64,000 nucleotides of DNA. Origin: Myxococcota bacterium (GTDB lineage: Bacteria > Myxococcota_A > UBA796 > CAJQPC01). Where the stretch lies: contig DASCPX010000016.1 of NCBI GenBank assembly GCA_036012755.1, forward strand, positions 1 to 64,000, in the 5' to 3' direction. Below, in pieces: positions 1-59,246 of the stretch (position 1 is its first letter; every line of letters starts with the position of its first letter). A program made the translations under genes and the position numbers. The notes under the pieces were generated by a model that was not told the DNA's origin, did no database searches, and saw only the letters and a program-made list of their open reading frames with translations.

Positions 1-166
1 CGCAGGACTCGACTGGGTTGTTCTCGTCCCCGTGGCCGTCGCCGTCGGTGTCCATGTACCAGGTCGTCGACTCGCAGCCCGTGTCCTCGGGCACCGAGCT
101 GTCGATCGGCTCGGTCTCGTCAGGGAGATCGACCGATCCGCGGGTGCAGGAGAGGAGGAGGAGCAT
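1..166 (-). CDS. Lipoprotein with WYxDxDGDGxG putative metal-binding (MopE-like) repeat; runs off the left edge
   Basis: Hand translation from ATG 166: MLLLLSC-TRGSVDLPDETEP...TTWYMDTDGDGHGD; not in the ORF track. Confidence 0.75.
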   Translation of the reverse strand, partial: MLLLLSCTRGSVDLPDETEPIDSSVPEDTGCESTTWYMDTDGDGHGDENNPVESC

Positions 167-215
167 GCGAAGCCACACGATACAGGCTTCCAGGGCTCAT
201 CGGATAGACGGTCTC

Positions 216-1475
216 ATGTCCCGTTCTTCAGATCTCCTCGAAGCCAGCCGCCTCGTCATCCCTGGCGGCGTCAACTCGCCTGTGCGCGCCTTCTCCGCCG
301 TCGAGGGCGACCCACCCTTCATCGCTCGCGGCGAAGGAGTCCGCATCCACGACGAGGACGGCAACAGCTACTACGATCTCGTCGGCAGCTGGGGGCCGCT
401 GATCCTCGGCCATGCCCACCCGAAGGTGGTGGCCGCGGTGGCAGCCGCCCTCGCGAAGGGGGCCTCCTTCGGCGCCCCCACCAAGGGGGAGCTCCACTTC
501 GCCCAGGCCCTCGTCGAGCGCGTGCCCGGCATCGACATGGTCCGCCTCTGCTCCAGCGGGACGGAGGCGACCATGCACGCGCTCCGGTTGGCTCGGGGCT
601 TCACCGGCCGCGACGCCATCATCAAGATCGACGGCTGCTACCACGGGGCCCACGACACCGTGCTCGTCAGCGCCGGGAGCGGCGTCGCCACCTACGCGAA
701 GCCCGGCTCCCCCGGCATCATCGCTCCCGCCACCCTCACCGCTCCTTTCAACGACCTGCCCGCCATCGAGGCCCAGCTCTCGACGCACGCCCTCGCCGCC
801 GTCATCGTCGAGCCGGTCCCGGGCAACATGGGCTGCATCCCCCCCGACGAGGGCTACCTCCAGGGCCTCCGCGAGCTCTGCACATCTCACGGGGCCCTGT
901 TGATCTTCGACGAGGTCATGACCGGCTTTCGGCTGGCCCGCGGCGGCGCCCAGGAGCACTTCGGTGTCACCGCCGACGTCGTCTGCATGGGCAAGATCGT
1001 CGGCGGCGGCCTGCCCCTGGCGGCCTTCGGCGCCCGCCGGGAGATCATGGAGAACCTCAGCCCGCTGGGCCCGGTCTACCAGGCCGGAACGCTCTCCGGA
1101 AACCCCCTCGCAGTCGCGGCCGGCCTCGCCACGCTCGCGGAGCTCACGGACGAGGCCTACCAGCACCTCGACGACATCGCCCGCGGCCTCCACGAGCGCC
1201 TCCTCCCCCACATCGAGGAGCACAGCCTGTCCATGAGCCGGGTCGGCACGATGCTCACGGTCTTCTTCCGGTCAGAGGCCCCGAAGAACTTCGAGCAGGT
1301 GAAGGAGTGCGATCTCGCCGCCTTCGGCCGCTTCCATCGGGCCTGCCTCGATGCTGGCGTCTACCTACCGTGCAGCCAGTTCGAGGCGGTCTTTCTGCCC
1401 CTCGGACTTGGACAATCGGACCTCGACGAGATCGCTGGCGCCATGGGAGCCGCGATGGGTGTGGCGAGGGCCTGA
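216..1475 (+). CDS. hemL: Glutamate-1-semialdehyde 2,1-aminomutase
   Basis: IPGGVNSPVRAF, SGTEATM, FDEVMTGFR, GKIVGGGLP (PLP Lys), QAGTLSGNP; ATG 216 preferred over TTG 18. Confidence 0.97.
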   Translation: MSRSSDLLEASRLVIPGGVNSPVRAFSAVEGDPPFIARGEGVRIHDEDGNSYYDLVGSWGPLILGHAHPKVVAAVAAALAKGASFGAPTKGELHFAQALVERVPGIDMVRLCSSGTEATMHALRLARGFTGRDAIIKIDGCYHGAHDTVLVSAGSGVATYAKPGSPGIIAPATLTAPFNDLPAIEAQLSTHALAAVIVEPVPGNMGCIPPDEGYLQGLRELCTSHGALLIFDEVMTGFRLARGGAQEHFGVTADVVCMGKIVGGGLPLAAFGARREIMENLSPLGPVYQAGTLSGNPLAVAAGLATLAELTDEAYQHLDDIARGLHERLLPHIEEHSLSMSRVGTMLTVFFRSEAPKNFEQVKECDLAAFGRFHRACLDAGVYLPCSQFEAVFLPLGLGQSDLDEIAGAMGAAMGVARA

Positions 1476-1530
1476 GGATCCCGTTAGCTGGGGCGCCCTC
1501 GAAGGGGTCCCCCCGAAAGGCCACACGGTG

Positions 1531-1905: not shown

Positions 1906-1906
1906 G

Positions 1907-2701: not shown

Positions 2702-2758
2702 TTGTTCAAGCTCTCATCTGTCTTTTCGCGTCTCGCTGACGTTGCCATGGAGTCCAAA

Positions 2759-3091: not shown

Positions 3092-3117
3092 AGAACCCGC
3101 AGTCCGACGCAGCCCAT

Positions 3118-3156: not shown

Positions 3157-3184
3157 GCACCGTTAGCCACACTTGGAGGTCCAG

Positions 3185-4003
3185 ATGCTCTTCCTGCTGC
3201 TGTCATGCGGTGACAAGAACGCCGAACCCGCCCCACCCCCGGTCGGCTGGCACATCGAGGAGGGCTGGACGGCCCCGTGCTGGCACCCACCGGACTTCGA
3301 CAAGCTCGAGTCCACAGACGGAATCAGCGGACGCCGCATGGCCCGCCAGGAGAGCCTGGAGGCGATGACCAGCCAGTGGCTCGGCAGCCGGGACGACGGC
3401 GTGAGCTTCGCCGCCGGCACCGTCGAGGACGTCGAGACCGTGCTCCTGGGCCGCCCGGCGCAGATCGAGGCGCTCTCTCGCAAGAACCTGGAGCTGTGCA
3501 AGCAGACGATGGGCGCTGCCGCCGGGACAGGGGCGTGGAACACCTGGCTCCGCAGCGTGCCGGATGCACTCACCGCCGGCGAGTGCATGCTGCCCTTCAC
3601 CTACACGATGTTCGACTACCTCGACAACGGCACCGGCTGGCACATGAACCTCCCGGTCTGTGCTGGCGACATCGTCATCATCGAGGCCACCACCATGGAC
3701 CGCTACCGGATCTCCGATGGCGGCGAGTGGATCAACGCAGAGGGCATCTCCGGGACCACCGGGGTCGCCACCGACCTCCCCTGTGACCTGGAGCTCTGCG
3801 CAGAGGGCATGCTCATCGGGCGCTTCGTCAGCGAGGACGGCTACGAGGACATCTTCCCGATCGGCACGAGCACCGCCTACAAGCCGACCGCTCACGGGAC
3901 GATCTCGGTCACGATCAACGACAACACCTACTACGACAACACCTGGTACACCTCCGGCGGCATCACGGACCGCACCGGCATCACCTTCTCCCCCGGCGAC
4001 TGA
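3185..4003 (+). CDS. Lipoprotein with C-terminal LecA/PA-IL-like beta-sandwich
   Basis: MLFLLLSC lipobox; GW...V.AGDIVIIEA...LIGRF...IG...GTISVTINDNTYYDN pattern. Confidence 0.6.
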   Translation: MLFLLLSCGDKNAEPAPPPVGWHIEEGWTAPCWHPPDFDKLESTDGISGRRMARQESLEAMTSQWLGSRDDGVSFAAGTVEDVETVLLGRPAQIEALSRKNLELCKQTMGAAAGTGAWNTWLRSVPDALTAGECMLPFTYTMFDYLDNGTGWHMNLPVCAGDIVIIEATTMDRYRISDGGEWINAEGISGTTGVATDLPCDLELCAEGMLIGRFVSEDGYEDIFPIGTSTAYKPTAHGTISVTINDNTYYDNTWYTSGGITDRTGITFSPGD

Positions 4004-4046
4004 GGCGCCTGCGGCCAGCGTGCCCCGGTTGAAGTAGAGTTCCGCG

Positions 4047-12580: not shown

Positions 12581-14065
12581 ATGACACTCGTTCTCCTGGG
12601 AACCGCGTTCGCGCAGGATCTCACTCCCGACGAGCAGGGCGACCTGATCGTCTCGGAGTTCATGGCCGAGCCACAAAAAGTGCCCGACTACTACGGGGAG
12701 TGGTTCGAGATCACGAACGTCTCGGGCAAGCTCAAAGACCTCAACGGCCTGGTGGTGGAGGGCAGCTCCAGCGGAGAGCTCGTCGCCCTGTCGGGCTCGC
12801 TGTTGCTCGAACACGAGAGCTCGTTGGTGCTCGGCGTCCACTCGGACACGGGCGACAACGGCAACGTGGCGATCGACGTCGAGTACAGCTTCGCCGACTT
12901 CTCGATGAACCGAAGCGGCGACACGATCCGCCTGACCTACAACGGGAACACGGTCGACGAACTCATCTGGACCAGCGCCTGGAACGTGCCCTCGGTCTCG
13001 AGCTTCCAGGTCGGGCCCCAGGGCTACGGCGAGTGGGCGAACGACCTGAACAACAACTGGTGCAACTCGGACCGGTACATCGACGGTGGGGTCGGGCTCT
13101 TCGGCACCCCGGGCGAGGAGAACGACTACTGCAACGACGCCGGAGAGGACGCTGACGGCGACGGCTACTCCGAGCAGGAGGGGGACTGCGACGACAGCGA
13201 CCCATACGTCAACCCCGGTGCGGTCGATGGCACGGAGGATCCCTTCGGAGAGACGGACGACGACGCCGACTGCGACAACGAGCGGGACGACGGGCTCGTC
13301 GACAACGACGGTGACGGCTTCACCGGTGTCGACGGCGACTGCAACGACGACGACCTGAACATCAACCCCTCGAAGTCCGAGGGCAAGGACGCGGACGGGA
13401 TCGACAACGACTGCAACTGCTGGATCGACGACATCGACGCCGACGGGGACAGCTACCCGAACTTCGATGACGCCGACTATGTCGGCTACTCGGACCCCAA
13501 GGTGGAGGAGCTCTTCTGCGATCCAGAAGACGTCGGCGACTGCGTCGACGACGGCGTGATCGACGGGGTCTCCGCGGTGGACATCCACCCCGGAGCCACC
13601 GAGACGCCGTACAACGGAGTCGACGAAGACTGCGACGGCGTGGACCTCTGTGATGTCGACGGCGACGGCTATGACTCCATCGAGTGCGACGCCGGCGGGG
13701 ACTGCGACGACGACAACCCGGACATCCACCCCGGCGCCCCGGACGCCACCTCCGAGCCCGACGGTCTCGACAACGACTGCGACGGCATCATCGACAGCCC
13801 CGACCGGGACGGTGACAAGTACATGGTCGCGGACGGTGACTGCGACGACAACAACCCGGACGTGAACCCGGGCGTGGCCGAGCAGTGCGACGACTTCCTC
13901 GACAACAACTGTGACGGTTTCTACAACGAAGGCTGCGACTACCCGGCCTTCGAAGCGACAGTCCAGGGCGGCTCCCTCATCGGGTGCAGCGCGCTGTCCT
14001 CTTCGAGACCAGCCGGCCTGGTGCTGTTGTTCGGTGGTCTCCTCCTGATCCTCCGTCGCCGCTGA
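12581..14065 (+). CDS. Lamin-tail domain plus Cys/Asp-rich metal-binding repeats, MYXO-CTERM-like tail
   Basis: LIVSEFMAEP...GEWFEITN...GTPGEEN; repeated DCDD..P.I/V.PGA and DG.DNDC; ends GCSA...LVLLFGGLLLILRRR. Confidence 0.85.
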   Translation: MTLVLLGTAFAQDLTPDEQGDLIVSEFMAEPQKVPDYYGEWFEITNVSGKLKDLNGLVVEGSSSGELVALSGSLLLEHESSLVLGVHSDTGDNGNVAIDVEYSFADFSMNRSGDTIRLTYNGNTVDELIWTSAWNVPSVSSFQVGPQGYGEWANDLNNNWCNSDRYIDGGVGLFGTPGEENDYCNDAGEDADGDGYSEQEGDCDDSDPYVNPGAVDGTEDPFGETDDDADCDNERDDGLVDNDGDGFTGVDGDCNDDDLNINPSKSEGKDADGIDNDCNCWIDDIDADGDSYPNFDDADYVGYSDPKVEELFCDPEDVGDCVDDGVIDGVSAVDIHPGATETPYNGVDEDCDGVDLCDVDGDGYDSIECDAGGDCDDDNPDIHPGAPDATSEPDGLDNDCDGIIDSPDRDGDKYMVADGDCDDNNPDVNPGVAEQCDDFLDNNCDGFYNEGCDYPAFEATVQGGSLIGCSALSSSRPAGLVLLFGGLLLILRRR

Positions 14066-14075: not shown

Positions 14076-15767
14076 ATGCTGCAGCTGCTGATCGGCCTCG
14101 CCCAGGCCCAGTCGACACAGACGGTCGACATCGATCGCTTCAAGCCCCCCAGTGACCACTACGGCTACCTGGCCACCGAGTCGGCCGAGACCCTCGGCCA
14201 CCTCCAGGTCGGCGTGGGCGTCTGGGCCAACTACGCGGACGACCCGGTGGTGCTCGTCGACGGCGACGGCAACCGGGTCGGGGTCCTGCCAAACGGCGAA
14301 GGCGGCCCCGTCGAGAGTCGCATGGTGGCCAACGCCCACCTGGGAATGGGCCTGACCAACTTCTTCAGCGTCTCGGCCGACTTGCCCGTGGTGCTCCTGC
14401 AGCAGGGCTACCGCATCGACGGCCTCTCCCAGCTGGACGCACCCGCACCGATCGCCAGCGACGGCCTCGGCGATCTGAGGGTCACGCCGAAGGTGGCGCC
14501 CGTGTCTCGAGACGAGTTCCCCGTCGGAGTCGCGCTCTTGGTGCCCGTCACCTCCCCCACCGGCGGCGACCTCGGCTTCATGTCCGAGGACGCCTTCACC
14601 GTGAACCCGACCCTGGCGCTGGAGCTCTCGGACGCGAGCGTGTGGCGCCGGCAGTACAAGTGGCGCGCCGCCGTCAACCTCGGCTACCTCGTGCGGCCAG
14701 CGGATCGGGCCCGTGACGTCCAGACCGGCTCGGCTGTGACCTACCGCGCAGCCGCCGCCTTCCGGGTCGGCAAGCCCGCCGAGGTCGTCGTGGACGTCTT
14801 CGGCCAGACCTGGGGCGCCCAGAAGAACCAGGCCCCCCTGGAGGCCGCCCTCGGCATCAAGTTCCTCATCGGGCCCTGGCTCACAGCGAACATCGGCGGC
14901 GGCGCCGGCCTCATCCCGGGTCTCGGCACCCCCGACTACCGCGCCTTCGTCGGCCTCTCCGCGGCCCCCTCCTTCGACCCGAACGCCAGGGACACCGACA
15001 AGGACGGCGTGCCCGACGGCGAGGACCGCTGTCCCAAGCACCCAGAAGACCTCGACGGCTTCCGGGACACGGACGGCTGCCCCGACACCGACAACGACGG
15101 CGACGGCATCGAGGACGACATCGACAAGTGCCCGGACGACCCAGAGGACGACGACGGGTTCATGGACAACGACGGCTGTCCCGAGCCGGACAACGACAAC
15201 GACGGCATCAGCGATCTGCTGGACCGCTGCCCGAACGAGCCAGAGGATCTCAACGGCTTCGAGGACGACGACGGCTGTCCGGACGTGGCCGACAGTGACG
15301 GCGACGGCTTCCTGGACGACGTGGACCGGTGTCCCTACGACGCAGAGGACTTCGACGGCGTCGAGGACAACGACGGCTGTCCCGACGATGACCGGGTCGT
15401 GGTCAAGGAAGGCCGCATCCAGATCAACGAGAAGATCTACTTCGAGTCCGGAAAGGCGATCATCAAGCCGGAGTCCTACGACCTCTGCGACGAGATCGCC
15501 CAGGTGATCAACGCCAACCCGCAGCTGCTGCTGATCCGCGTGGAAGGCCACACAGACAGCGACGGCTCGGACGTGTCGAACCTCAAGCTGTCCAGCAACC
15601 GGGCAGCATCCGTGAAGACCTACCTGGTCTCCAACGGAGGCGTGGACGCCGGTCGCCTGACCAGCGTCGGGCTCGGAGAGAGCTCACCGATCGACACGAA
15701 CGACACCGACGCGGGCAAGGCCAACAACCGGCGCGTCGAGTTCATCATCGTGAAGGAATCCGACTGA
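14076..15767 (+). CDS. OmpA-family outer-membrane protein with TSP3 repeats (TraB-like architecture)
   Basis: N-terminal beta-barrel, D.D.DG..D..D.CP repeats, IYFESG, VEGHTD, LS..RA..V, NRRVEF. Confidence 0.92.
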   Translation: MLQLLIGLAQAQSTQTVDIDRFKPPSDHYGYLATESAETLGHLQVGVGVWANYADDPVVLVDGDGNRVGVLPNGEGGPVESRMVANAHLGMGLTNFFSVSADLPVVLLQQGYRIDGLSQLDAPAPIASDGLGDLRVTPKVAPVSRDEFPVGVALLVPVTSPTGGDLGFMSEDAFTVNPTLALELSDASVWRRQYKWRAAVNLGYLVRPADRARDVQTGSAVTYRAAAAFRVGKPAEVVVDVFGQTWGAQKNQAPLEAALGIKFLIGPWLTANIGGGAGLIPGLGTPDYRAFVGLSAAPSFDPNARDTDKDGVPDGEDRCPKHPEDLDGFRDTDGCPDTDNDGDGIEDDIDKCPDDPEDDDGFMDNDGCPEPDNDNDGISDLLDRCPNEPEDLNGFEDDDGCPDVADSDGDGFLDDVDRCPYDAEDFDGVEDNDGCPDDDRVVVKEGRIQINEKIYFESGKAIIKPESYDLCDEIAQVINANPQLLLIRVEGHTDSDGSDVSNLKLSSNRAASVKTYLVSNGGVDAGRLTSVGLGESSPIDTNDTDAGKANNRRVEFIIVKESD

Positions 15768-16810: not shown

Positions 16811-17590
16811 CTACTCGCTGAGCAGCTGGAGATAGAACTCGAGGCGGTCGTTCTCCAGCGTCCCCTCGCCAAGGGGCGCCCACCCGTAGCCCTCGATGGG
16901 GGTGAACACGATGTTCTCGAGCGGGAAGTCCTTGTACTCGTACTCGGCGGCGAAGCCGATGCTGGTCTCCTCCAGCTCCGGCACGGCGGCGGCGAGGGTG
17001 CTGCAGTCACCTTCGAGGGTCTCACCTCCCGAGGCGGTGAAGGCCCAGGCGGCGTCGCAGGGCTCGCAGTCGGTCGGCTTCGAGACCAGGGTGGTCGAGG
17101 TCCAGAGCCAGATGCAGCTCGTGACGTCGTCCTCGAAGTAGAGCCCGACCTCGCCGTCGAAGCCGCTGGAGACGTCGACCTCGCCGAAGAGCAGCGCTCC
17201 GGGTTCGTCGCCAGGCTCCCCGGTGTCGTACTCCCAGGTCGCTCCGTCGACGACGAGCCTGACGTACATCACCTCGGTGGCGCCGTGCTCGTCCATGGCG
17301 ATGATCTCCAGCTCCGAGTACTCGAAGGTCTCCTCGGGGGGGCTGAAGGTGCCGCTGGTCCCGTTCCGGGGGAAGTCGAAGCCGACGGGGGCGTGGGGGA
17401 ACAACAGCTCGATGTCGTCACGCTCCCGGTCGACGACCTCGATCTCGATGTCGACGCTCCCCCCGGCGCTCACGATGATCGGGTCCGGCAGGAAGGGGAT
17501 GCCGAAGATCCGCTTCACGGCCAGCCCGTTGACCGTCATGAAGCGGGGCTCGGTGTTCGTCCCGATGCAGCCGAGCGCGAGCAGGATCAT
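16811..17590 (-). CDS. Lipoprotein, hypothetical (TBDR operon)
   Basis: MILLALGC; ATGA overlap with the upstream gene; CxW...CEPC motif. Confidence 0.75.
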   Translation of the reverse strand: MILLALGCIGTNTEPRFMTVNGLAVKRIFGIPFLPDPIIVSAGGSVDIEIEVVDRERDDIELLFPHAPVGFDFPRNGTSGTFSPPEETFEYSELEIIAMDEHGATEVMYVRLVVDGATWEYDTGEPGDEPGALLFGEVDVSSGFDGEVGLYFEDDVTSCIWLWTSTTLVSKPTDCEPCDAAWAFTASGGETLEGDCSTLAAAVPELEETSIGFAAEYEYKDFPLENIVFTPIEGYGWAPLGEGTLENDRLEFYLQLLSE

Positions 17591-18465
17591 CGGACCTCCA
17601 CGGTCTGGACGACCCAGTGGTTGTCAGGGGCGGAGACCCCTTCGCGGCCGTTGAAGACGACCACGACGGCGACGCGCGGCGTGCCCTGCTCCGGCAGGGT
17701 CCAGCGATTGGTCGTGCTCGTGAGGCCCTCTGGCCAGGCCGCGTCGTCCTCGACGTAGCCGTGGGCGATGGTCCAGCCGGTGTCCTCGAGCACCCCGTCG
17801 TCCACGTACCAGAGGAAGTCGGCTCCCCGGAGGTCACCCTCCACCGAGAGCGTGACCTCGATGGTCTCCCCAGCCCCCGCGCTCTCCGGCACGTCCAGGT
17901 CGATGCGGGAGCTCCGAAGAGACGTGGGGAACTCCGTGTCCACAGGCTTGGTGTTCCAGCTGACCCACCCGGCGGCGAAGACCGGCTGCTCGTCCACCGA
18001 GCCCTCCAGGACCAGCGGCAGCTCGTGGGCGCAGGTGTTGCCGCCCCTGTCGAGGCCAGTGTCCGCCGTTCCGGAAGACCCGCTGTCCCAACCCCCGCTG
18101 TCCCACCAGATGACCCCACACTCGTCGATCTCGGGAGTCGGCGGCGGAGTGAACTGCAAGGAGTTGCCTGTGCCTTCGGCGATGCGGACGATCTCGCCGG
18201 GGTCCTGGAAGCAGTTGAGATCACCGATGTAGGTCACGACGTCCCGCCCCAGGGCGCAGGTCTCCAGCGAGTAGCCGCCGAGGTCTCCCCCGCGAGGGGC
18301 CAGCAGGAGCCACTCCAGGGTGTACTGGTGATCGGGCTCCACCCGCGGGGGGTCCAGCGCCATCGCGACGATGCGCGGGTGCTCGATCCGGTACTCGGTG
18401 GCGAGGTAGACCGTGCGCGAGGCGAAGAGCTCGCCGAAGCAGCCGCTGAGGACGAAGACGAGCAT
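17587..18465 (-). CDS. TBDR-associated lipoprotein
   Basis: MLVFVLSGC; TGATG overlap with the TBDR stop; PRIVAMALDPP, FLWYVDDG. Confidence 0.8.
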   Translation of the reverse strand: MLVFVLSGCFGELFASRTVYLATEYRIEHPRIVAMALDPPRVEPDHQYTLEWLLLAPRGGDLGGYSLETCALGRDVVTYIGDLNCFQDPGEIVRIAEGTGNSLQFTPPPTPEIDECGVIWWDSGGWDSGSSGTADTGLDRGGNTCAHELPLVLEGSVDEQPVFAAGWVSWNTKPVDTEFPTSLRSSRIDLDVPESAGAGETIEVTLSVEGDLRGADFLWYVDDGVLEDTGWTIAHGYVEDDAAWPEGLTSTTNRWTLPEQGTPRVAVVVVFNGREGVSAPDNHWVVQTVEVR

Positions 18466-20828: not shown

Positions 20829-22098
20829 ATGTTCTTGGTGTGGCTCGGCTGAAACCCGGCGTTGGCCGAGACTCCAACGACGATCGCGGCCTGCACCGCC
20901 CCCCCCCCGGCGATGCCCGGGGCCACGAAGGAAGCGATGAAGGCGGCGGTGCGGATCGAGACCGTGCGGTCGAGCGGGAGCGGAGTCGTGGTGTCTCCGG
21001 ACGGCTTCGTGCTGACCGCGGCGCACGTGGTGGGCGGCGCCAAGACCGTCGACGTGGTCCTGGCGGACGGCTCCTCCATCTCGGGGACCGTGCTGCGGCG
21101 CAACCCCAGCGCGGACCTCGCCCTGATCCATCTCGGCGAGGAGGGTTTCCCGTGCCTGTCACTCGCTGGCGCACGGGCGGACCTGGGGACCGAGCTCTAC
21201 CTGATCGGCTCACCCGGAGGCGAGATCCTCACCCACACGCTGACCCGGGCTCGACGGTCACCGAGCGACCCGAAGATCCAGCCGATCGCCTCCCCACGAA
21301 GGAGGCCTGCCGAGACGTGACCGGCGGCACGGACCCGGTCAGCGGCCTCTACCGGATGACCGCCGAGGCCAGCGACATGTTCTGGCTGCAGTGGGAGGTG
21401 GGGGGCCAGGCCCACTACACGACCTCCCTGCGCAGCTACACCTTCGGCACGAAAGAGGCCATCTCGACCATCCCCGGCGCGGTGACCCTGGACTACGTGC
21501 TCGCCGACGGCACGAAGATCCGCCTGGTGAACAGCGGCGCCCGCGTCGAGGTCATCCCGCAGTACAACGTCGTCGTCATCTCGGTCGACTTCGTGCTCTC
21601 GGACGAGGCGGTCTCTGCCTTCGCGAGCTCGCCCCCGACCTTCCGCCGCTGGACGATCGCCGGGAAGACCTTCGACCAGGAGCGCAGCACCCGCCAGGGA
21701 GAGAAGTACTACCGGCCGATGTTCGGCTGCGTGATGGCCGGGATCGACAAGTACAGCGACGACGGGGGGGCAGACTCCGAGCCCGAGCCCGAGCCCGAGC
21801 CGGTGACAGAGGCCCTCGACCTGACCGCACCGCCTCCAACCGAGGTCGTGCCAGAGGCCGTGAAGCCGCGGGGCGGCCCGCTGATGATCGCTGGCGGTGC
21901 TGGGGTCGTGGTGTCCGGAACGTCGATGTTCATCGCCTCCCGGTACGCCGCAGCAGCCCGATCGGCCCAGGGGGCCGAGGTCTACGACAGCAGCGTCCAG
22001 GCAGCCAGGGCCGCCGAGACCGCCGGCTGGGTGACCGGAGCTGCCGGGCTGGCGCTAGTAGGCACCGGCGTGACCCTTCGCTTCGCGGGAGAGAGTGA
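20829..22098 (+). pseudogene. Trypsin-like (S1C) serine protease pseudogene
   Basis: In-frame TGA 20850-52 in the signal; GSGVVVSPDGFVLTAAHVV and DLAL present; GNSGG absent; frame switch near 21245; end approximate. Confidence 0.75.
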
Positions 22099-36344: not shown

Positions 36345-37744
36345 TCCTGCTCTTGGCCTGTTCCGGAAACCCCGAACCCCAGAAGGTCGAGGAGAAGCCT
36401 GCCCTCGAGGTCCTCGCCGAGGCTCCGGACAAGGCGTCCACCAAAGTGGACTTCCACCTGGAGGCGGCCGTCCTGACATCCGAGGGACTAGCAGATGGCC
36501 TGCTGCGCGGGAACGACGCCTGGGTGCCCATCGGCAATCCCAACGGCGAAGGCCTGCTGTTGCGCTTCGCCGAGCCCTTCTACTTCAGCAAGCTCGAGGT
36601 CAGCGCCTGCTCCACCGGCCCCGCCTGGACCCCGACTGTCTTCGTGAACGGAGCCCGGGTCGACGACCGACGCCTGGAGCCCGGGGGGACCAAGGCCGTG
36701 CAGGTCGGCGAGGTCGTGAAGTCCGTCTTCGTGCGCATGAGCCACGCCGAGCCGGGGGCCTGCATGGGCGGTGTGCGCTTCCTGGACTCCAAGGGCGAAG
36801 ACCTGAACGTGCTGCCACCCCGCCACGTCGGGGCCGAGGTCCGGGCCAGCTCCACCCTGGAGCCCGCCGACGCCTACCACACGCTCTACCTCGTCGACAG
36901 CCGCACGGACTTCGGCTGGGTGGAGGGCGCCAAGGGCACCGGCGCGGGCGAGAGCCTGAGCATCACCCTGGACGAGGAGGTGGAGCTCCACGGCGTCCGG
37001 CTCTGGAACGGCTACCAGCGCAGCGAGGACCACTTCAAGAAGAACGCGCGCCTGAAGAAGGTGACCCTGTCCTTCGACACCGGGTCGGTGACCCTGGAGG
37101 TGCCGGACGCCATGGGGCCCTCCGAGCTGTCCTTCGATCCGGTCAAGACGCGCAGCCTGAAGCTGACCATCGACGAGGTCACCCCGGGCAGCCGCTACGA
37201 GGACCTCGTGATCTCCGAGCTGGAGCTGATCGACGAGGACGGCCCCCTCAGCCTCAGGACCTGGGACGACCGGGCCAAGGCCCTGCGCACCGCCCACGCT
37301 GGCACCGCGCTGGGGGCCCTGATGGACCAGCAGCTCGAGAGCGTCTGCAGCGACGAGTGGATCACCCAGGCCAAGCTGCGCAGCAACCACAGCTTCGTGG
37401 TCTACGGCGAGAGCATGGACACCTCGACCGTCTTCGACGGTGCCTGGGTCCCGCTGGGCAAGGAGGGGGCCTGGACCGCGGTCAAGCTCTACGGCCGACG
37501 CCACCGCATCCGCTCGACCTACCAGCCCTACGGCACCGACACGACGGACGAGGAGACCCGGATCGGCGGCGGCAAGCTGCTCCTGGCGCGAGCCTCCGAC
37601 CTCGACGAGGAGACCTGGATCGTCACCTCCGCCGAGCTGGCCTGGGGCCTGACCTGCTCGCCGAACCTGAGCCACGCAGAGGCCATCGAGATGGGCATCG
37701 TGCTCATGAAGGGGGCGGACATCGACGCGGTCGTCGCCTTCTGA
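36341..37744 (+). CDS. Lipoprotein with NADase-type glycan-binding/discoidin-like domain
   Basis: MILLLAC; ASSTL...WVEG..G.GAGE...NGYQRS...F.KNARLK...ISELE. Confidence 0.75.
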   Translation: MILLLACSGNPEPQKVEEKPALEVLAEAPDKASTKVDFHLEAAVLTSEGLADGLLRGNDAWVPIGNPNGEGLLLRFAEPFYFSKLEVSACSTGPAWTPTVFVNGARVDDRRLEPGGTKAVQVGEVVKSVFVRMSHAEPGACMGGVRFLDSKGEDLNVLPPRHVGAEVRASSTLEPADAYHTLYLVDSRTDFGWVEGAKGTGAGESLSITLDEEVELHGVRLWNGYQRSEDHFKKNARLKKVTLSFDTGSVTLEVPDAMGPSELSFDPVKTRSLKLTIDEVTPGSRYEDLVISELELIDEDGPLSLRTWDDRAKALRTAHAGTALGALMDQQLESVCSDEWITQAKLRSNHSFVVYGESMDTSTVFDGAWVPLGKEGAWTAVKLYGRRHRIRSTYQPYGTDTTDEETRIGGGKLLLARASDLDEETWIVTSAELAWGLTCSPNLSHAEAIEMGIVLMKGADIDAVVAF

Positions 37745-38222
37745 TGCTCCTGATGCTCGGGTGTGGCATGGAGCCAGCGCCGCAGCCGCCTCCGCCCCGG
37801 CTGCAGTCGATCCTCACGTCCAGCATCGGCCCAAACCCCTTCGACGCCACCGCCGGGATCGGGCCGATGGCGTCACCCAGACCCAGATCAAGCTCCGCTC
37901 CAACCAGACCTTCGACATCGTCGGCGAGGACCTCGTGGCGCACGGCGACTGGTTCCCGTCGGCGGCCTTCCGCGGCTGGACGAAGGTGACGCTCCATGGA
38001 ACGAGAACCCAGGGCGGCGAGACCACGGTCCTCGACAGCGAAAGCCTCACCCTGGCGACAGCCTCCGAGCTCGACGCTGCAGGCTGGATCGACACCGCCC
38101 GGCGCTACACCTCGGCGCTGGACTGCGAGGGCCAGATGAGCCACGAGCAGGCGGCCAGCGAGGGCATCGTGATGGTCGAGGGCGCAATAGAGGCCGTGGT
38201 CCGCCTCAACGCCGCCGAGTGA
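37744..38222 (+). pseudogene. Frameshifted lipoprotein, paralog of the C-terminal domain of the preceding gene
   Basis: MLLMLGC at a TGATG overlap; frame change near 37855; KLRSN, ASELD...W, L.C...SH..A...GIV shared with the upstream gene. Confidence 0.65.
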
Positions 38223-39489: not shown

Positions 39490-40506
39490 TCAGTCGCGCA
39501 GGTGGCGGTTCAGGTACTCGAAGTCGGTGGTGTCCCCAGAGATGTGCACGTCCGAGGACCAGCTCTGGCCGTAGTGGCCGAAGTCGTCCAGCAGCCCGAG
39601 CCCATCCGACTCCAGCCGCGCCATCCCGCCCTGCTGCCGCACGACCCAGAGCTGCTCGTCATCGGCCGCGACGTTGGTCAGGTACTCGTCCATCGTGGTG
39701 GAGTCGACCAACCCCCCGGCGTCGAACTGGTAGAGCGAGGCCCCGTGCTTGTTCGCGAGGTAGACGTGGTCCCGATCCGAGGCCAGGGACCTGGGGCGGC
39801 TGGACGCGGCGTGGGTGTCGGTGACGCCGAAGGTGGACAGGTCGACCTGGAAGAGCAGGTCCTCGTTGGTGACCGCCACCCAGCGCGTGCTCCCCTCGAC
39901 GTGCACCGCCTGCGGGTAGTGCGCCATCGTGGTGTTGCCGGTGTAGACGTCCGGGTAGCCCTCGAAGGTGAGCGAGGCGACCTCCTCGAGGGTGGCCCGG
40001 TCCAAGACAGCGACACGACCTTCGTAGGGGTAGCTCGAGCCCAGGTCGAAGAGCGCCGCGTAGACGTGGTCCTCGTCTAGATCGAGGTCCAGCACCTGCA
40101 CATCGACGAGCGAGGTCATCTCGACCACCGAGCCGGTCTTGTCGAGCACGTAGAGGGTCTGGTCGTCGTTGGAGGCGACGAAGACCTCCTCGTCGTCCAG
40201 GGCGATGGCCAGGTGCGCGCTGCCGAGCTCGATCTCCTCGACCTCGAGCAGGAGCAGGTCGGCGTCGCCGCCGTTGTAGACCACGAGCGACTTGTCCTGG
40301 GCAGGGCACACATCGGCGAGGCTCGGCCAGCCATAGGAGCGCGGCGTGAGCACGATGTCGGGCTCGAGCACCGGCGCTTCGCTGTCCACGGGAGAGTCGG
40401 CGGGGGAGTCCACCGGGCTGTCCTCGACCTCCGAGTCATGGGTCGAGGGCTGCGACTCTCGAGGAACGACCTGGTTCTCCGTGCACGCGACGAGCAGCAG
40501 CAGCAT
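39490..40506 (-). CDS. Lipoprotein with partial Ig-like unit and beta-propeller repeats (possibly internally deleted)
   Basis: MLLLLVAC; PDIVLTP...N.GDADL; blade-like repeats. Confidence 0.65.
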   Translation of the reverse strand: MLLLLVACTENQVVPRESQPSTHDSEVEDSPVDSPADSPVDSEAPVLEPDIVLTPRSYGWPSLADVCPAQDKSLVVYNGGDADLLLLEVEEIELGSAHLAIALDDEEVFVASNDDQTLYVLDKTGSVVEMTSLVDVQVLDLDLDEDHVYAALFDLGSSYPYEGRVAVLDRATLEEVASLTFEGYPDVYTGNTTMAHYPQAVHVEGSTRWVAVTNEDLLFQVDLSTFGVTDTHAASSRPRSLASDRDHVYLANKHGASLYQFDAGGLVDSTTMDEYLTNVAADDEQLWVVRQQGGMARLESDGLGLLDDFGHYGQSWSSDVHISGDTTDFEYLNRHLRD

Positions 40507-40548: not shown

Positions 40549-41214
40549 GTGGTCTGGCTCATCTCATGCATCAGCGGCGAAGAGGTCGTCGTCGGTCCGG
40601 GCCTCGATCAGACAGACGACAGCTCGGTGATCGAGGGGCCGTGCGCTGACGACATGGTCGAGGTCGAGGACTTCTGCATCGACCGCTACGAGGCCTTCGT
40701 CACCGACGGGGTCGCCGAAAACGGCGAGGGCGAGACCCCCACCGGCTACCACTCGGGAGAGCAGGCCGAGCTGTACTGCGAAGCCGCCGACAAGCGCCTC
40801 TGCACAAGCGAGGAGTGGCTGCACGCCTGTCAGGGGGAGCCGCCGACCACCTGGCCATACGGCGACACCTACGATCCGACGGCCTGCAACGACAGCTACC
40901 CGGGAGGTCACCCGGTGGTGGACTACTTCGGCACCTCCGACGGGACCTGGAACACGGAGCACATGAACGATCCCGGCATCAACGAGCAGCCGGACACGGT
41001 CGATCCCAGCGGGGAAAACCTGTCCTGCGTCAGCATCGATGGGGTCTACGACCTTCACGGCAACCTCCACGAATGGGTCGCCGAGAGCGTGTTCCGGGGC
41101 GGGTTCTACGCGGACGCGGAGCTCAACGGACCCGGTTGCACCTAAGTCACGACCGCCCACGCAACGAGCTACCACGACTACTCGACGGGCTTCCGCTGCT
41201 GCGCGGACCCCTGA
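40549..41214 (+). pseudogene. FGE-sulfatase (SUMF1)-domain lipoprotein with a premature stop
   Basis: FCIDRYE, KRLCT.EEW..AC, YDLHGNLHEW; TAA 41143-45, then in-frame ...DYSTGFRCC. Confidence 0.8.
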
Positions 41215-49990: not shown

Positions 49991-50350
49991 GTGACCGTCT
50001 TGTTCATGCTTGCCGCATGTGAGCACACGACGCCTGAAGACCCCGCCGGAAGCACCGAGCAGTCTCGCGCAGAGGCCATGCCCCACTGCAACGGAATAGT
50101 GCACGACGACACGTTCTACACGGACTGCGTCATCCGGGGCATCGTCGCGGCCCCGGACAGGGACAGCGCAGAGGAGCTCTGCTCTTCCCTGCCTCTCCGT
50201 CAGTCCGAGTGTCGCTCCCAGTGGGCCATGCGCATGATGAACCGGGCCGACGCAGAGGACGTCCGGATCATGTGCGGCGAGGACGGCGAGTGCCTGGCGG
50301 AGCTCGAAGAGGTGATCGCCTGGCGAGCCAAGGTGCAGCCCCCGGGCTGA
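49991..50350 (+). CDS. Small Cys-rich lipoprotein
   Basis: GGAG SD; MTVLFMLAAC; six further Cys. Confidence 0.65.
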   Translation: MTVLFMLAACEHTTPEDPAGSTEQSRAEAMPHCNGIVHDDTFYTDCVIRGIVAAPDRDSAEELCSSLPLRQSECRSQWAMRMMNRADAEDVRIMCGEDGECLAELEEVIAWRAKVQPPG

Positions 50351-50366: not shown

Positions 50367-51188
50367 TCAGTTCGTGACTGGCGGCTCGAAGAGGTAGAGC
50401 GCCAGGGGCTGATCGCCGGTGGCTTCGATCACCACGGGCGCGGGACGCAGGAAGACCAGCAGCGTGCCCGGCGTGATCGCGCGCTCGGTCCCGGCGCCGC
50501 GCAGCATGCCCTCTCCGGAGACGGCATAGAGCAGCCCATGGTCCTCTGAGGTGGCGGGCAGCTCGTACTGCTCGCCCACGAACAGCCGAGACATACGCCC
50601 TTCCATGATCGGCAGATCGAGGCGGTCGAAGGGCTGCCCGGAGGCGACGAAGTCCTCGACGTCGTCGTCGGGGTGGTAGCTGAAGGGTGCGGTGCCCTGG
50701 TCCATGCGCGGGTCGTCCGGCCGCAGGTACAGGTTGCCGTCGAAGGAGGGGTAGGCCAGCACGAGGTTGGCCTGGTGAGCTCCGGTGTTGTTGTCCCACT
50801 CGTGGCCGGTGAAGGGGGGCGAAGAGACCAGCGAGCCCGGCCCGAACTGCTCTTGGGTCTCCACGCGCTCCCCCTCTTCGGCGTAGACGTGAGCGACGTC
50901 CGGCGAGCCCGTGACGATGATGGTCGCCTCGTTGGCGGTGCGGTGGACGTGCAGCGGACAGAGCTGATCGACGCCGATGACGTGCATGTGCGCGGAGGCG
51001 ACCTCGGTCGTGTAGAAGGTCTCCGACCGGTCGGTGGAGTCGAAGTGGGCCTGGATGATCTCCTCGGCCTTGTCCGGGAGGTTGGTGCTGGCGAGGGCGA
51101 GGCCGCTGGGAGGCACCTCGACGACCAAGGGCGTGACGGCTTCCTCCTGGGCGCACGCCGCCAGGGCCCACAGCGCAAGTCCCGTCAC
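50367..51188 (-). CDS. Cupin-domain lipoprotein
   Basis: LAAC; PLHVH...E...G...PP..GH. Confidence 0.75.
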   Translation of the reverse strand: MTGLALWALAACAQEEAVTPLVVEVPPSGLALASTNLPDKAEEIIQAHFDSTDRSETFYTTEVASAHMHVIGVDQLCPLHVHRTANEATIIVTGSPDVAHVYAEEGERVETQEQFGPGSLVSSPPFTGHEWDNNTGAHQANLVLAYPSFDGNLYLRPDDPRMDQGTAPFSYHPDDDVEDFVASGQPFDRLDLPIMEGRMSRLFVGEQYELPATSEDHGLLYAVSGEGMLRGAGTERAITPGTLLVFLRPAPVVIEATGDQPLALYLFEPPVTN

Positions 51189-52585
51189 GGCTCATCCGGC
51201 TTCGCGGGATCGACATAGCCCATCGCCTCGAGCTGCCGGACGGTCGCCTCGTCGAACTCGACCTTGACCTCGCTCGCCGCGCTGGCCGCGACGTGCTCAC
51301 GCAGGGTCCTCTCCAGCTTCGGTGCGGGACGAGACAGCGCCGTCTTCTCCTTGGGGTCGGCCACCAGGTCGAAGAGCTCGGAGCGGCCCTCCTCGGGCAG
51401 CCAGTGGCGACCATGCTCGGCGACCTGGTGGTCCTCGACGTAGAGGATGAGCTTGCTCTGGCCGTCCTGCACGGCCTTGGCCTCGCCGCGCTGATTCAGG
51501 GCTTCGGAGATCGCCACCCGGTGGTCGGCGTCGGCGGTTGGCAGGGGGGCGCCGTCGATGTCCTCGGGCACGGGCAGCTCGAGGATCGACAGGATGGTCG
51601 GCATCACGTCGACGGTGGGCACCGTGGTCGTGACGTGGGTGCCAGCGTGCTCGCCCCCGGGCCACTTCACGAGCAGGGGCACGTGCACGAGCTCCTCGTA
51701 GAGCGTGTGTCCGTGGGCATCGTAGAAGTGGTTGCCGTGGTCCACGAACTCCTCGCCGTGATCGGAGGTGACGATGATGAGGGCGCGCTCGTAGAGCCCC
51801 TGCTCCTTCAGCTCGGAGACGAGGTCCGCGAAGTGACCGTCCATTGCACGGATGCCCCCGTCGTAGAGCGCCATGGTGACCTTGGGGTGGACGGCGTCGT
51901 GGGCCTTCAGGGTCGCGCTGTAGTCGGTGTGCGCCTGCTGCCGGGCCTCGTTGTCCGGCGGGCCGCTGCGCAGGATCCGGTCGAACTCGGCGAGCTCGGC
52001 GGCAAGCTCGGGCCGATCGATGAAGCGCGTGTCCGTATAGGGAGCGTGGACCTCGAAGCTGTGCCAGAAGAGCAGGAAGGGCTGCTCGGCGTGCCCGGCA
52101 GTCCAGCTCGACAGCTCCGCGACGTGGGCGTCCGTGAGCTTGTAGTGGTCCGTCTCGTAGGTCGCGAAGCCCTGGCCGAGCCCGACCTTGGGATCCATCG
52201 AGCCGCCGCCGGTGAACGCCGCGGTCGCGTAGCCTGCCGAGCCGAGGTGCTCCGCGAGGGTCTGCACGGCGGGGTCGAGCGAGCGCACACCGTCGCCGCG
52301 CTCCAGCGCGTCGATGAGGTCGAAGTAGTACTGGGTCACGCCGTGATGGCCCGGGTAGAGACCAGTCATCAGGCTGACGTGGGCCGGCGTCGTCCACGGC
52401 GCCGAGGAGACGGCGTGTTCGTAGAGGACCGCGTCCCTGGCGAAGGCATCCAGCGCGGGCGAGGTCTCGGAGATCGCGTAGCCGTAGCTGCCGAGGTGGT
52501 CGGCACGGAGCGTGTCGATGCTGACCAGCACGACCGGCGTGGGCGAAGGCTCCACCGGCGTCGAGCATGCGAGGAGCCAGGTCAC
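51185..52585 (-). CDS. Sulfatase-family lipoprotein
   Basis: MTWLLAC; SIDTLRADH, WTTPAHVSLMTG, SDHGEEF, HVPL. Confidence 0.9.
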   Translation of the reverse strand: MTWLLACSTPVEPSPTPVVLVSIDTLRADHLGSYGYAISETSPALDAFARDAVLYEHAVSSAPWTTPAHVSLMTGLYPGHHGVTQYYFDLIDALERGDGVRSLDPAVQTLAEHLGSAGYATAAFTGGGSMDPKVGLGQGFATYETDHYKLTDAHVAELSSWTAGHAEQPFLLFWHSFEVHAPYTDTRFIDRPELAAELAEFDRILRSGPPDNEARQQAHTDYSATLKAHDAVHPKVTMALYDGGIRAMDGHFADLVSELKEQGLYERALIIVTSDHGEEFVDHGNHFYDAHGHTLYEELVHVPLLVKWPGGEHAGTHVTTTVPTVDVMPTILSILELPVPEDIDGAPLPTADADHRVAISEALNQRGEAKAVQDGQSKLILYVEDHQVAEHGRHWLPEEGRSELFDLVADPKEKTALSRPAPKLERTLREHVAASAASEVKVEFDEATVRQLEAMGYVDPAKPDEP

Positions 52586-56771: not shown

Positions 56772-56815
56772 GAACAGTACGGCGGTAACCGACGTACACA
56801 ACGGGGGTTAGGGTC

Positions 56816-57802
56816 TTGTCCGTGCCTCTTCTTCCGTTCTTCGGTGCCGTCGCGCTCGTTGGTCTCGCCATCGCGGCGTGGGCCTACTTCGACGGCCAAT
56901 GGGGTGGCGGAGAGAGGCTCACGGACGAGGAGGGCAGCCGCCGCAACCAGCGCCTGGATCGCAGCTGGCGACGGGGCGAGGACCTCAGGCAGTACCCCCG
57001 CCGCCTCAAAGAGCTCGAGGACCAGCTTATAGGCTCGCACCGCGCCGCACAGCAGCAGCTCCAGCACCTCGGCCTGAAGGCCTCCGAGATGGACGAAAAG
57101 GGCCGCGGGGATCTCGCCGAGCGCTACCAGGCCGACCTCGACGTGCTCGAGCGTCGGGCCGCAGCCACCCGCAGGGTGATGGCCACCGTCTGGAAGACCA
57201 GAGCCATCCTGCATCTGCGGGTCCACCTGGCGGTCGCCGCTCGCCAGCGCCCCGATCTCGCCCACCTCCCCCAGCCCCTGGACGTGGACCCCAGCGAGCT
57301 CGAAGCAGCAGCAGAGAACTACTTCCTCTCCAAGAACGAGGTCCGCACCTTCGTCGAGGTCCTCGACGGCCTCTGCGGGCACGTGTCCGAGATCGTCCCG
57401 CCCAAGCCGCTGTCCGCGGAGGTCGACCCCAAGGACGAGCTCACCGTGCAGAAGGAGGTCGACGCCATCGAGCGCACCCTGGAGCAGCTGCGAGAGCGCA
57501 TGGACAAGCTCGGCGACACGCTCGACTACCTCTCGGATCGCTTCAAGACCCAGCGCGTCGTCGAGGGAGCCGATCTGTCCGTCGACTTCGGGCCAGAGGC
57601 CAGCAAGCTGCTGGTCGAGGTCAGCGGGGCCGTGAGCCAGCTCGAGGCGCTCTCGGCGGTCGGGGACAAGGGCCTGGCCGACGCAGCGGTCGACTCGCTC
57701 TGCGAGGACATCGGCCGCCTCGAGCAGGCCGGCATGGAGGCCAGCGCGGAGGAGGAGGCAAACCAGGAGGTCCAGCGCCTGCTGGAGCAGTTCGCTCGAT
57801 GA
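56816..57802 (+). CDS. Membrane-anchored coiled-coil hypothetical protein
   Basis: N-terminal TM and heptad-rich body. Confidence 0.7.
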   Translation: MSVPLLPFFGAVALVGLAIAAWAYFDGQWGGGERLTDEEGSRRNQRLDRSWRRGEDLRQYPRRLKELEDQLIGSHRAAQQQLQHLGLKASEMDEKGRGDLAERYQADLDVLERRAAATRRVMATVWKTRAILHLRVHLAVAARQRPDLAHLPQPLDVDPSELEAAAENYFLSKNEVRTFVEVLDGLCGHVSEIVPPKPLSAEVDPKDELTVQKEVDAIERTLEQLRERMDKLGDTLDYLSDRFKTQRVVEGADLSVDFGPEASKLLVEVSGAVSQLEALSAVGDKGLADAAVDSLCEDIGRLEQAGMEASAEEEANQEVQRLLEQFAR

Positions 57803-58230
57803 TCCTGCTGCTGAGCGCGGTGCTCGCGAGCGAGCCGACGATCGCCCTCGACAAGCAGCCGACCACCGAAGAGGCCGCGCGCGAGGCCCAGGATGCCTGG
57901 CTGCGCTACGCCACCGCCGCCACCGCCGCCGTCTGGCCCACCTTCGAGGCCGAGCTGAAGGACATGAAGTTGCCAGGCGCCAGCTATGCGTGGAATGCAC
58001 GCCTGGTCGTCGACCCGGAGGGCAAGCTCGTCATCGTCACGCTCTCGGAGGGCTCCGGCCACGCGGCCGCTGACGCCGCGCTCATCGCTGCCTTCCAGCA
58101 GGTCGGCCTGTTCGGGCCGCCGCCGAAGGTCTGGATCCAGACGACGGACGAGGCGGTCTTCGACGGGCTCGTCTTCACCTACGAGCGCCAGGCCGACCCC
58201 GGCGCCCTCAAGGTGCCCTACGAGCGGTAG
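57799..58230 (+). CDS. TonB C-terminal-like domain protein
   Basis: MILLLSAVLA; VDPEG...SEGSG...D.A...A...FGPPP. Confidence 0.7.
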   Translation: MILLLSAVLASEPTIALDKQPTTEEAAREAQDAWLRYATAATAAVWPTFEAELKDMKLPGASYAWNARLVVDPEGKLVIVTLSEGSGHAAADAALIAAFQQVGLFGPPPKVWIQTTDEAVFDGLVFTYERQADPGALKVPYER

Positions 58231-58235
58231 GGGCC

Positions 58236-59246
58236 CTACAGCCCCGTGTCGCGCTGATAGGTGATGTCCGGGTAGTGCCAGTCCCGCACGCCGCCGGTGG
58301 TGAAGGACCAGGTCTCCTCGTAGCTGCCCGACTGGTTCGTCACCGCGATGGTCGCCGTGTAGGTCGTGTGCTCTGAGAGCGGTGAGGTCGGCACCATCGC
58401 GACGGTGTACTGCAGCTTCTCGATGTCGTTCGGATCGACGACGATGACCTCGACCTCGCCGTCGGGCCCCACGAGCTTCGTCCGGTCCACGATGAGATCG
58501 TAGGGGTTCGAGTTCCTCGAGCCGGCGTCACCCGTCGTCAGCATCGTGATGGGGAGCCCGAGCTCGTCGTCGAAGCCCACCGGGTCGGTCTCGATCGAGG
58601 AGCCCTCCGGGTAGTGCTGGTAGTTCGGGGGCACGCCGATCTGTCCGTCCGCCGGGTAGACGACCGGGCGCCCGACCCGGTGCTTGTCCGGCTCCTCGCG
58701 CAGCAAGACGAACTGCCCGAAGGGCTCGGCCTTCCCGAAGCCGGCCTCGTACCAGCCCGGGGACATGAGCGCCTCTCGGAACTGGAAGTGGGCCATCAGC
58801 CGGTCGACCCAGAGCTCCACGTCGCCGACGTCGTCATAGCTGAAGTAGAGCTGCCACTTGCCCCAGTCGACGTTGGTCTCGGTGTAGCCAGCCGCGTCGA
58901 GGCGCTTGTTGAGCTTCTCTCCGGTGAACCGATCCCGGTCCGAGTCCTCTGCATCCCAGTCCCGCACGGGCTCGCCGGTCTCGGAGTCCAGGAGGGTGTA
59001 GAGGGCCGTGTCGGATACGTACCAGCCGTACTCGTAGTGCTCCTGGAAGTAGCGGGCGTGGGACTGCGCCGCCTCGGAGACCGCCGGATCCATGCGCCCC
59101 ATGGAGACCCCCGTGAGCCGTCGATAGCAGTTCACGCGCCCGACGAACTGCTCCGTGGCGGCGCTGCCACCTCCGGGGAGTCGATTTGAACAAGCCTGTT
59201 GGACCGTGTCGTAGGAGCATCCGGCCAGAAGCAACCAGATGTTCAT
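58236..59246 (-). CDS. CAP/SCP-domain lipoprotein with Ig-like C-terminus
   Basis: LLLAGC; VNCYRR..G...AAQSHARY; VVYP..GQ..VP; WSFTT. Confidence 0.8.
   Translation of the reverse strand: MNIWLLLAGCSYDTVQQACSNRLPGGGSAATEQFVGRVNCYRRLTGVSMGRMDPAVSEAAQSHARYFQEHYEYGWYVSDTALYTLLDSETGEPVRDWDAEDSDRDRFTGEKLNKRLDAAGYTETNVDWGKWQLYFSYDDVGDVELWVDRLMAHFQFREALMSPGWYEAGFGKAEPFGQFVLLREEPDKHRVGRPVVYPADGQIGVPPNYQHYPEGSSIETDPVGFDDELGLPITMLTTGDAGSRNSNPYDLIVDRTKLVGPDGEVEVIVVDPNDIEKLQYTVAMVPTSPLSEHTTYTATIAVTNQSGSYEETWSFTTGGVRDWHYPDITYQRDTGL

Follow-up and report, generated by a model that had tools for sequence, protein, structure and literature searches.

The DNA analysed here, called the window throughout, comprises the first 64,000 nucleotides of contig DASCPX010000016.1 (C16:1-64000) of a Myxococcota genome that is available as 6.73 Mb in 250 contigs with 68% GC (hereafter G000). 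The subject is a set of sixteen protein N-termini in this window that look like lipoprotein signal peptides but are ultrashort and carry no basic residue ahead of the lipobox cysteine (Cys). The original prediction, made by reading the window without tools, listed these sixteen N-termini, and all 16 were found where it had placed them, with the Cys at residue 7-12 and with Lys or Arg (K/R) before the Cys in 0 of the 16. The lipobox features (Cys at +1, a small residue at -1 and a hydrophobic residue at -3) are also fit by all 16. The genes starting at 166, 17590, 18465, 25893, 40506, 51188, 52585 and 59246 lie on the complementary strand and the other eight on the forward strand, and the start codon is ATG in 10 cases and GTG in 6. 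Coding composition agrees with the claimed frame in 15 of the 16 open reading frames (ORFs), with a GC content at third codon positions of 0.83-0.96 and positive codon log-odds. On matching to Pfam, several of the window proteins were found to belong to extracytoplasmic families, namely sulfatase, FGE-sulfatase, peptidase M15, the MopE-type metal-binding motif, F5/8 type C and Big_5.

It had also been claimed that several of these starts are constrained, and this could be upheld for 13 of the 16, for which nearby upstream stops, Shine-Dalgarno sites, overlaps of stop and start codons and the coding signal give good support; those at 166, 37744 and 59246 are doubtful. GGAGG-type Shine-Dalgarno sites are present before 3185, 17590, 18465, 34072, 36341, 40506 and 40549, and in six cases the start overlaps the stop of a real upstream gene, as ATGA or GTGA at 17590, 36341 and 51188 and as TGATG at 18465, 25893 and 37744. 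On the forward strand, the gene beginning MLFLLLSC (3185..4003, 272 amino acids) has an in-frame stop 6 codons upstream and GGAGG 6 nucleotides before its ATG, and that beginning MILLLGAC (22095..22496, 133 amino acids, GTG) has a stop 7 codons upstream and no alternative start. The MopE-type metal-binding-motif protein MLALLSSC (34072..34869, 265 amino acids) starts directly after TAG TAG, with 0 codons in between and GAGGAG upstream; next to it lies a peptidase M15 of the D-Ala-D-Ala dipeptidase family, MLITLWITAC (34879..35568, 229 amino acids), with a stop 3 codons upstream. GAGGAG is also present upstream of the F5/8-type-C / NADase_transloc domain protein MILLLAC (36341..37744, 467 amino acids, GTG), the start of which forms the GTGA overlap with the upstream gene, and GGGAGG is found upstream of the FGE-sulfatase-domain protein MVWLISC (40549..41145, 198 amino acids, GTG). 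The gene beginning MTVLFMLAAC (49991..50350, 119 amino acids, GTG) has GGAG 7 nucleotides upstream, a weaker coding score and a possible TTG start 18 codons upstream.

On the complementary strand, MLLGLSLAAC (25357..25893, 178 amino acids) has its TGATG overlap with the stop of a 994-amino-acid upstream gene, and MLLLLVAC (39490..40506, 338 amino acids) has GGAGGG 3 nucleotides before the ATG and no canonical upstream start. The bicupin MTGLALWALAAC (50367..51188, 273 amino acids, GTG) has a stop 1 codon upstream and a GTGA overlap with the gene of a sulfatase, MTWLLAC (51185..52585, 466 amino acids, GTG), for which the upstream stop is 7 codons away and the conserved first strand of the domain runs from residue 18. 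MLVFVLSGC (17587..18465, 292 amino acids) has the TGATG overlap with the stop of a 760-amino-acid upstream gene, and MILLALGC (16811..17590, 259 amino acids) has an ATGA overlap with the stop of the gene before it, GGAGG upstream and no other upstream start. It may be noted that the region 16811-20747 is thereby a run of three genes on this strand chained by stop/start overlaps (20747-18465, 18465-17587 and 17590-16811), the last two of which both carry leaders of the short lipobox kind and match no Pfam family.

Marine metagenome runs from other studies provide contigs that span the starts at 34072 (X7), 34879 (X9, X11), 36341 (X9) and 40506/40549 (X7) with no indels, the start at 34072 being unchanged and the few substitutions occurring downstream of 34879 only. 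Assembly error at these five starts is ruled out by these indel-free independent contigs. As for the doubtful cases, MLLLLSC belongs to a gene on the complementary strand that is cut by the contig end and is present as its 5′ part (1..166); if translation began at a GTG 4 codons upstream, the leader would be MWLRMLLLLSC, with 11 residues and one R. MLLMLGC heads an ORF of 81 amino acids on the forward strand (37744..37989) in which the coding signal is in frame only to about 37830-37834, and after about 37830 it moves to the +2 frame and runs to a stop at 38222. The stretch 37744-38222 may hold chance or unrelated ORFs, or a frameshifted lipoprotein gene (pseudogene or assembly error), the independent cover being thin there. 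The Big_5-domain protein MNIWLLLAGC (58236..59246, complementary strand, 336 amino acids) has an ATG at 59276, 10 codons upstream and 10 nucleotides past the stop of the upstream gene, and from there the canonical 20-residue signal MGPARGAAKLMNIWLLLAGC with R and K is obtained.

To see the pattern beyond the window, genes of G000 were called by our own simple caller, which uses codon log-odds with greedy overlap removal, and starts were chosen by an iterative model from the Shine-Dalgarno site, start codon and coding score. A genome-wide histogram of Cys position, which the original prediction had put forward as a check, is bimodal when all lipobox-like sites are counted with charge allowed. 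The main peak is at residue 8 (188 genes), and of the 548 genes with the Cys at 7-12 only 5 have K/R before it; the minor peak, with the Cys at 16-19, comprises 78 genes, 71 of them with K/R. A strict short class, defined as M followed by 2-8 residues other than K, R, D, E or C and then by G, A or S and C, with the Cys at 6-12, holds 577 of the 4474 genes. A second classifier of lipobox leaders gave 564 short, 131 canonical (14 of them Tat-like, that is, of the twin-arginine type) and 65 other cases.

The starts of the short class are often closely bounded. There is no in-frame ATG, GTG or TTG between the start and the upstream stop in 352 of the 577 genes, and in 123 at most 3 codons are open upstream. 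A 4-mer-or-better Shine-Dalgarno site is present at 145 of the 352 constrained starts (41%) as compared to 1891 of all 4474 genes (42%). A looser form of the motif is found at 587 of the 4474 called gene starts (13.1%) and at 524 of the 70658 internal in-frame start codons genome-wide (0.74%), where it is ~18-fold rarer; within the window, counting all six frames, 82 of 4126 start codons have it (2.0%). Since the loose motif is thus common in this GC-rich DNA, a reader without tools could have chanced on some of the listed examples.

In the short class, Leu makes up 47% of the residues before the Cys, and the uncharged Leu-rich stretch between Met and the lipobox is only about 3-8 residues long. 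The commonest lipobox is L-L-A-C, with L at position -3 in 353 of the 577 and at -2 in about 60%; at -1, where the search pattern demands a small residue, 403 have A, 97 G and 77 S. About 74% of the class have L, I, F or W as their second residue. P, D, G, T, S and E are frequent in the first ten positions past the Cys.

Short hydrophobic starts are not confined to lipoproteins. A Kyte-Doolittle mean of at least 2 over residues 2-7 was found for 1021 of the 4474 proteins, of which 513 are short lipobox leaders, and about 430 further hydrophobic starts resemble uncharged signal peptidase I (SPI) leaders of 10-14 residues, such as MLLIALAHA/EVP and MIQLLVALALA/QEPP (a slash marks the putative cleavage site, judged for these leaders by an A-x-A-like pattern and not by a trained predictor). 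Two such genes on the forward strand of the window are additional to the sixteen, one with the ultrashort and uncharged leader MTLVLLGTAFA/QD (12581..14065, 494 amino acids) and one with MLQLLIGLAQA/QS (14076..15767, 563 amino acids). Envelope orthologues located in G000 with E. coli K-12 protein queries include BamA, which begins MIHLLLAFWIALA/QSGTVKDLRVEGN (mature start QSG) with no other start candidate and with GGAG upstream, SurA, which begins MIALFGLLSVAEA/E, and a CpoB-like protein with the N-terminus MMLLLLSAC. Canonical signals are kept by Pal (MRITTLLFLTLTMAATC) and TolB (MKRFAALLLG...), and in the window the protein of 31262..31705 (forward strand) provides a contrast with its canonical lipoprotein signal MRWLLLVLGLTTLSAC of 16 residues with R at 2. 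Predicted membrane anchors in the window (e.g. 4047 and 38206-39489) retain basic residues, and the 14 Tat-type leaders retain RR in the n-region. A Tat-like N-terminus, MRITRRHVLAAGAAVAAASAVG, is also present in the window at 56277-56771 on the complementary strand, beside a gene for a 502-amino-acid FAD-type oxidoreductase.

Among the sulfatase paralogues of G000, the conserved first strand is immediately preceded by a short lipobox leader in ~19 of 41. The family is expanded in this genome (57 matches by genome search, 41 paralogues among the gene calls) and the window has the FGE-sulfatase-domain lipoprotein described above; the expansion suggests a lifestyle on sulfated polysaccharides. 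A search for sulfatases in 41 relatives gave a first look only, the paralogues being too many for orthologue calls. As the putative SPI-type leaders, those of BamA and SurA included, are shortened too, the trait is general to Sec signals and not specific to lipoproteins. The proposal that this lineage exports and lipidates proteins by a minimal signal therefore stands as to the minimal signal, which is backed by the constrained starts and by canonical orthologues with the same Cys and mature N-terminus (see below), but was too narrow in treating it as a matter of lipoproteins.

The same pipeline was run on samples of 53-200 kb from relatives, in which 29-154 genes were called per sample, an under-call. 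The ratio of short to canonical lipobox leaders was 19:3 in G000 itself (C16, 200 kb) and 11:5 in G002 of the same genus. Within the same family it was 10:1 in G007, 11:9 in G014, 6:5 in G012, 6:12 in G003, 1:3 in G006 and 0:7 in G004. Other members of the order gave 2:5 (G024), 2:8 (G033) and 0:8 (G040), other orders of the class 0:5 (G063), 0:4 (G080) and 0:3 (G047), and another class 0:17 (G051) and 1:21 (G052). Proteins hydrophobic at residues 2-7 are distributed likewise, their share being 0.23 in G000, 0.20 in G002, 0.23 in G007, 0.27 in G014, 0.16 in G012, 0.13 in G003, 0.09 in G004 and 0.02 in G006, as against 0.04-0.11 in other families of the order and 0.03-0.05 outside the order. 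The trait is graded, being pronounced in the genus and in some members of the family, weak elsewhere in the order and at background level beyond it. Equally GC-rich relatives give 0-2 short leaders per sample, which argues that the pattern is not made by the pipeline. The public records that hold relatives of the BamA are all uncultured metagenome-assembled genomes, mostly labelled Myxococcota or Deltaproteobacteria, and some of their BamA leaders are uncharged too.

Alignment to orthologues with normal signals was also suggested as a check at the outset. Pairs were taken as best matches between the sampled regions of relatives and G000 proteins with at least 70% length cover. A canonical signal in the relative and a short one in G000 were found in 2 pairs each for G004, G012 and G003, with the sequence after the Cys conserved. 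Thus, with a slash now placed after the Cys, G004 has MLSRSLPLVLALALVAC/GEKEP where G000 has MTLLFALTMAC/GEKED, and MSRAPVFMLLLAAAAC/TDKAD where G000 has MTLLLTLLAC/GDKDG; G012 has MRSVSRLAPGLLIALAATAC/TPHDAE where G000 has MSPILLLATAC/TPKDAE. In the two G003 pairs, MRPTASILVLFALGC/TEYDL corresponds to MLLALTFAC/SDYDL, for which the upstream stop in G000 is 3 codons away and forms part of a TAGGAGG site, and MRDLRHGPRLLPGVIAALLLAAVAC corresponds to MLLSLFAC, which has a stop directly upstream. Pairs in which both members are short were found for the trait-rich relatives G002 (4), G007 (4) and G014 (6). As the leader differs but the Cys and the start of the mature protein are kept, the short leaders are to be regarded as truncated descendants of canonical signal peptidase II (SPII) signals. 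A synteny search with the HtpG neighbour in 22 family genomes gave one usable orthologue N-terminus, from G001 of the same genus, and gene order downstream of htpG was not conserved across these 22 genomes. The M15 peptidase of the window (34879) has in G001 an orthologue that begins MLLIALALAQD with a stop 1 codon upstream; with a lipobox in the window gene and none in G001, this may be a switch between soluble and lipid-anchored forms.

The shortening of Sec-type signal peptides is therefore real, genome-wide and graded by lineage. The data above show the gene starts themselves, their distribution across the genome and among relatives, the homology to canonical signals and a set of export and processing genes of ordinary appearance, whereas export, cleavage and lipidation of the short-leader proteins are inferred. 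We consider it probable that these real gene starts encode truncated Sec-type signals and that most of the exported proteome uses them as export signals. Under this reading the signals would have lost their basic n-region and the greater part of their h-region, leaving Met, a Leu-rich stretch of ~3-8 residues and a cleavage motif, which would be a lipobox (usually L-L-A-C) in lipoproteins and an A-x-A-type site in other exported proteins. The change would have arisen within a single clade of uncultured marine Myxococcota, of family rank, through a shift of start codons into the former h-region, and the short signals would serve most of the exported proteome alongside a minority of canonical and Tat signals.

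The export and processing genes were considered for a changed component on which these leaders may depend. G000 encodes one SecY, one SecA, Ffh, FtsY, LepB, one Lnt, two Def and Fmt, and a signal recognition particle (SRP) RNA is found at 52.6 bits. An lspA-lspA-lgt-lgt operon is present at C59:99943-102645, with LspA copies of 198 and 173 amino acids, and three further Lgt-family genes lie outside it (C40, C127 and C203), making five in all. Both LspA copies keep the catalytic pair of Asp residues (E. coli numbering), and both have a 13-residue insertion relative to E. coli. If the leaders worked only through a changed or extra component, be it special Lgt/LspA paralogues, altered recognition by SecA or SRP or unusual membrane lipids, then the operon, the five Lgt-family genes and the LspA insertions would be natural candidates, and the coexistence of short and canonical signals would fit two routes. 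Neither the LspA duplication nor the Lgt copy number tracks with the trait among the relatives compared, those lacking the trait included. Tandem LspA genes are present in the order relatives G025, G029 and G035 (their leaders being unclassified), G040, which has no short leaders (0:8), has two unlinked LspA genes and 5 Lgt, and 3-6 Lgt-family matches were found in each of the 41 order genomes searched, which is high for a normally single-copy enzyme. On aligning SecY of 11 genomes (3 trait-high, 3 intermediate and 5 trait-low), no trait-correlated change was seen at the pore-ring and prlA4 positions; the protein is near-identical there between trait-high and trait-low genomes, and both groups have A or S at position 187. 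The altered recognition invoked by the original prediction thus gains no support from the SecY positions, the LspA Asp pair, the presence of Ffh, FtsY and SRP RNA or the Lgt/LspA copy number, with SecA, Ffh, SecE/G, YidC and the lipid-synthesis genes lying outside the comparison along the gradient, and we regard dependence on such a component as rather unlikely.

A second alternative accepts the short N-termini as real but takes them to be uncleaved and unlipidated, either as membrane tethers or as the starts of cytoplasmic proteins with an incidental Cys. In favour of this alternative, their hydrophobic stretch is below the length of a bilayer-spanning helix. Against it, the orthologues with canonical SPII signals have their Cys aligned with that of the short forms, position -3 is L in 353 of 577 (with A, G or S at -1 as the pattern requires), and the P/D/G/T/S-rich linkers after the Cys are typical of mature lipoproteins; moreover BamA, SurA and the sulfatases must cross the inner membrane. 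We therefore hold this alternative to be improbable.

The weakest alternative, which the original prediction had itself allowed for, is that translation really begins further upstream, at canonical or non-canonical codons, and includes a normal n-region; some upstream in-frame start does exist for 225 of the 577 short-class genes, 44 of which would gain a plausible basic extension of at most 15 residues, and 59246 and 166 in the window have such alternatives, but the constrained starts (352 with no upstream ATG, GTG or TTG, 123 with at most 3 open codons), their average Shine-Dalgarno frequency and the lack of indels at five window starts largely rule it out as a general explanation, so that we give it very little chance. 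Recoding of one stop codon was likewise considered and is no explanation, as the upstream stops are TAA, TAG and TGA alike.

Besides these upstream starts, a few points weigh against reading the short leaders as truncated export signals in general use. The doubtful examples make up 3 of the 16 window cases. The gene caller is crude, its 4474 genes in 6.7 Mb being below the yield of standard tools and the 100-kb samples being under-called, and the lipobox leaders per relative are few (3-22), from kin that are not independent. As the short-class pattern bars K, R, D and E before the Cys, the uncharged state of this class is partly built in, and the Cys histogram, which has no charge filter, is the better evidence. 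Lastly, the working-minimum hydrophobic stretch of E. coli model signals is longer than 6-8 residues, and such a stretch may therefore be too short for an unaltered Sec system.

As to how truncated signals of this kind could act, the very hydrophobic Leu-rich core, probably with a free or formylated Met, would suffice for engagement by SRP or SecA-SecYEG. The N-terminal Met would supply the needed N-terminal polarity, with a free amino group if deformylated and neutral if formylated. Met is expected to be mostly retained, given the L, I, F or W that follows it in ~74% of the class, and it is plausible that its amino group would take the place of the n-region. Lgt, LspA and Lnt would act on the lipobox as usual. 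In PMC9360617 the lipobox is described as the main feature that LspA recognises, and the segment after the Leu as extended. Going further, it is possible, and we propose it tentatively, that this clade has rewritten Sec targeting such that an uncharged Leu-rich N-terminus of 6-10 residues, with Met as the sole n-region, suffices for export and, with a lipobox, for lipidation of hundreds of proteins, some targeting or membrane feature of the lineage enabling it; the tripartite signal peptide would then be no universal requirement.

Canonical SPII signals usually have a length of 15-25 or more residues, and the PROSITE PS51257-type rule expects the Cys at 15-35 and K/R near the start; by this rule the present leaders would be rejected. 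According to PMC9360617, the canonical SPII signal comprises an n-region with positive charge, an h-region and a lipobox of the form Leu-Ala/Ser-Gly/Ala-Cys. The G000 leaders share with such signals (E. coli Lpp/Pal type) the lipobox with its invariant Cys, a preceding hydrophobic stretch (here of only about 3-8 residues, which may or may not serve as an h-region), the encoded Lgt, LspA and Lnt, and the alignment of orthologues at the Cys, but differ in having no K/R n-region, a total length of 7-12 residues and Leu at -2 in ~60% instead of the canonical Ala/Ser. Likewise, ~430 G000 proteins including BamA resemble canonical Sec/SPI signals in their hydrophobic start, in an A-x-A-like site and in the polar residues at the mature start, but their leaders are uncharged and of 10-14 residues, whereas E. 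coli BamA has 20 residues before AEG. Engineered E. coli signals without N-terminal positive charge were reportedly rescued by a longer or more hydrophobic core (work ascribed to Hikita and Mizushima, 1992). Loss of the basic n-region and a Leu-rich core (here 47% Leu before the Cys) are common to those constructs and to G000; the constructs lengthened the core, whereas in G000 it is shortened, natural and proteome-wide. In a literature search at the level of listings, no account was found of lineage-wide ultrashort uncharged Sec or lipoprotein signals.

If the leaders work as proposed, they do so at about half the textbook signal length and without the charge thought to orient or target a signal. 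Such very short secretion or lipidation tags may also be of use in protein engineering. The leaders would then set a natural lower bound on the requirements of Sec, SRP, Lgt and LspA. Most of the envelope proteins of these bacteria, which are abundant in the sea and uncultured, would escape rule-based predictors and probably trained ones as well; in G000 this concerns ~1000 of 4474 proteins. The relatives, which grade from canonical to minimal signals, offer a route to the changes that permit the minimal form.

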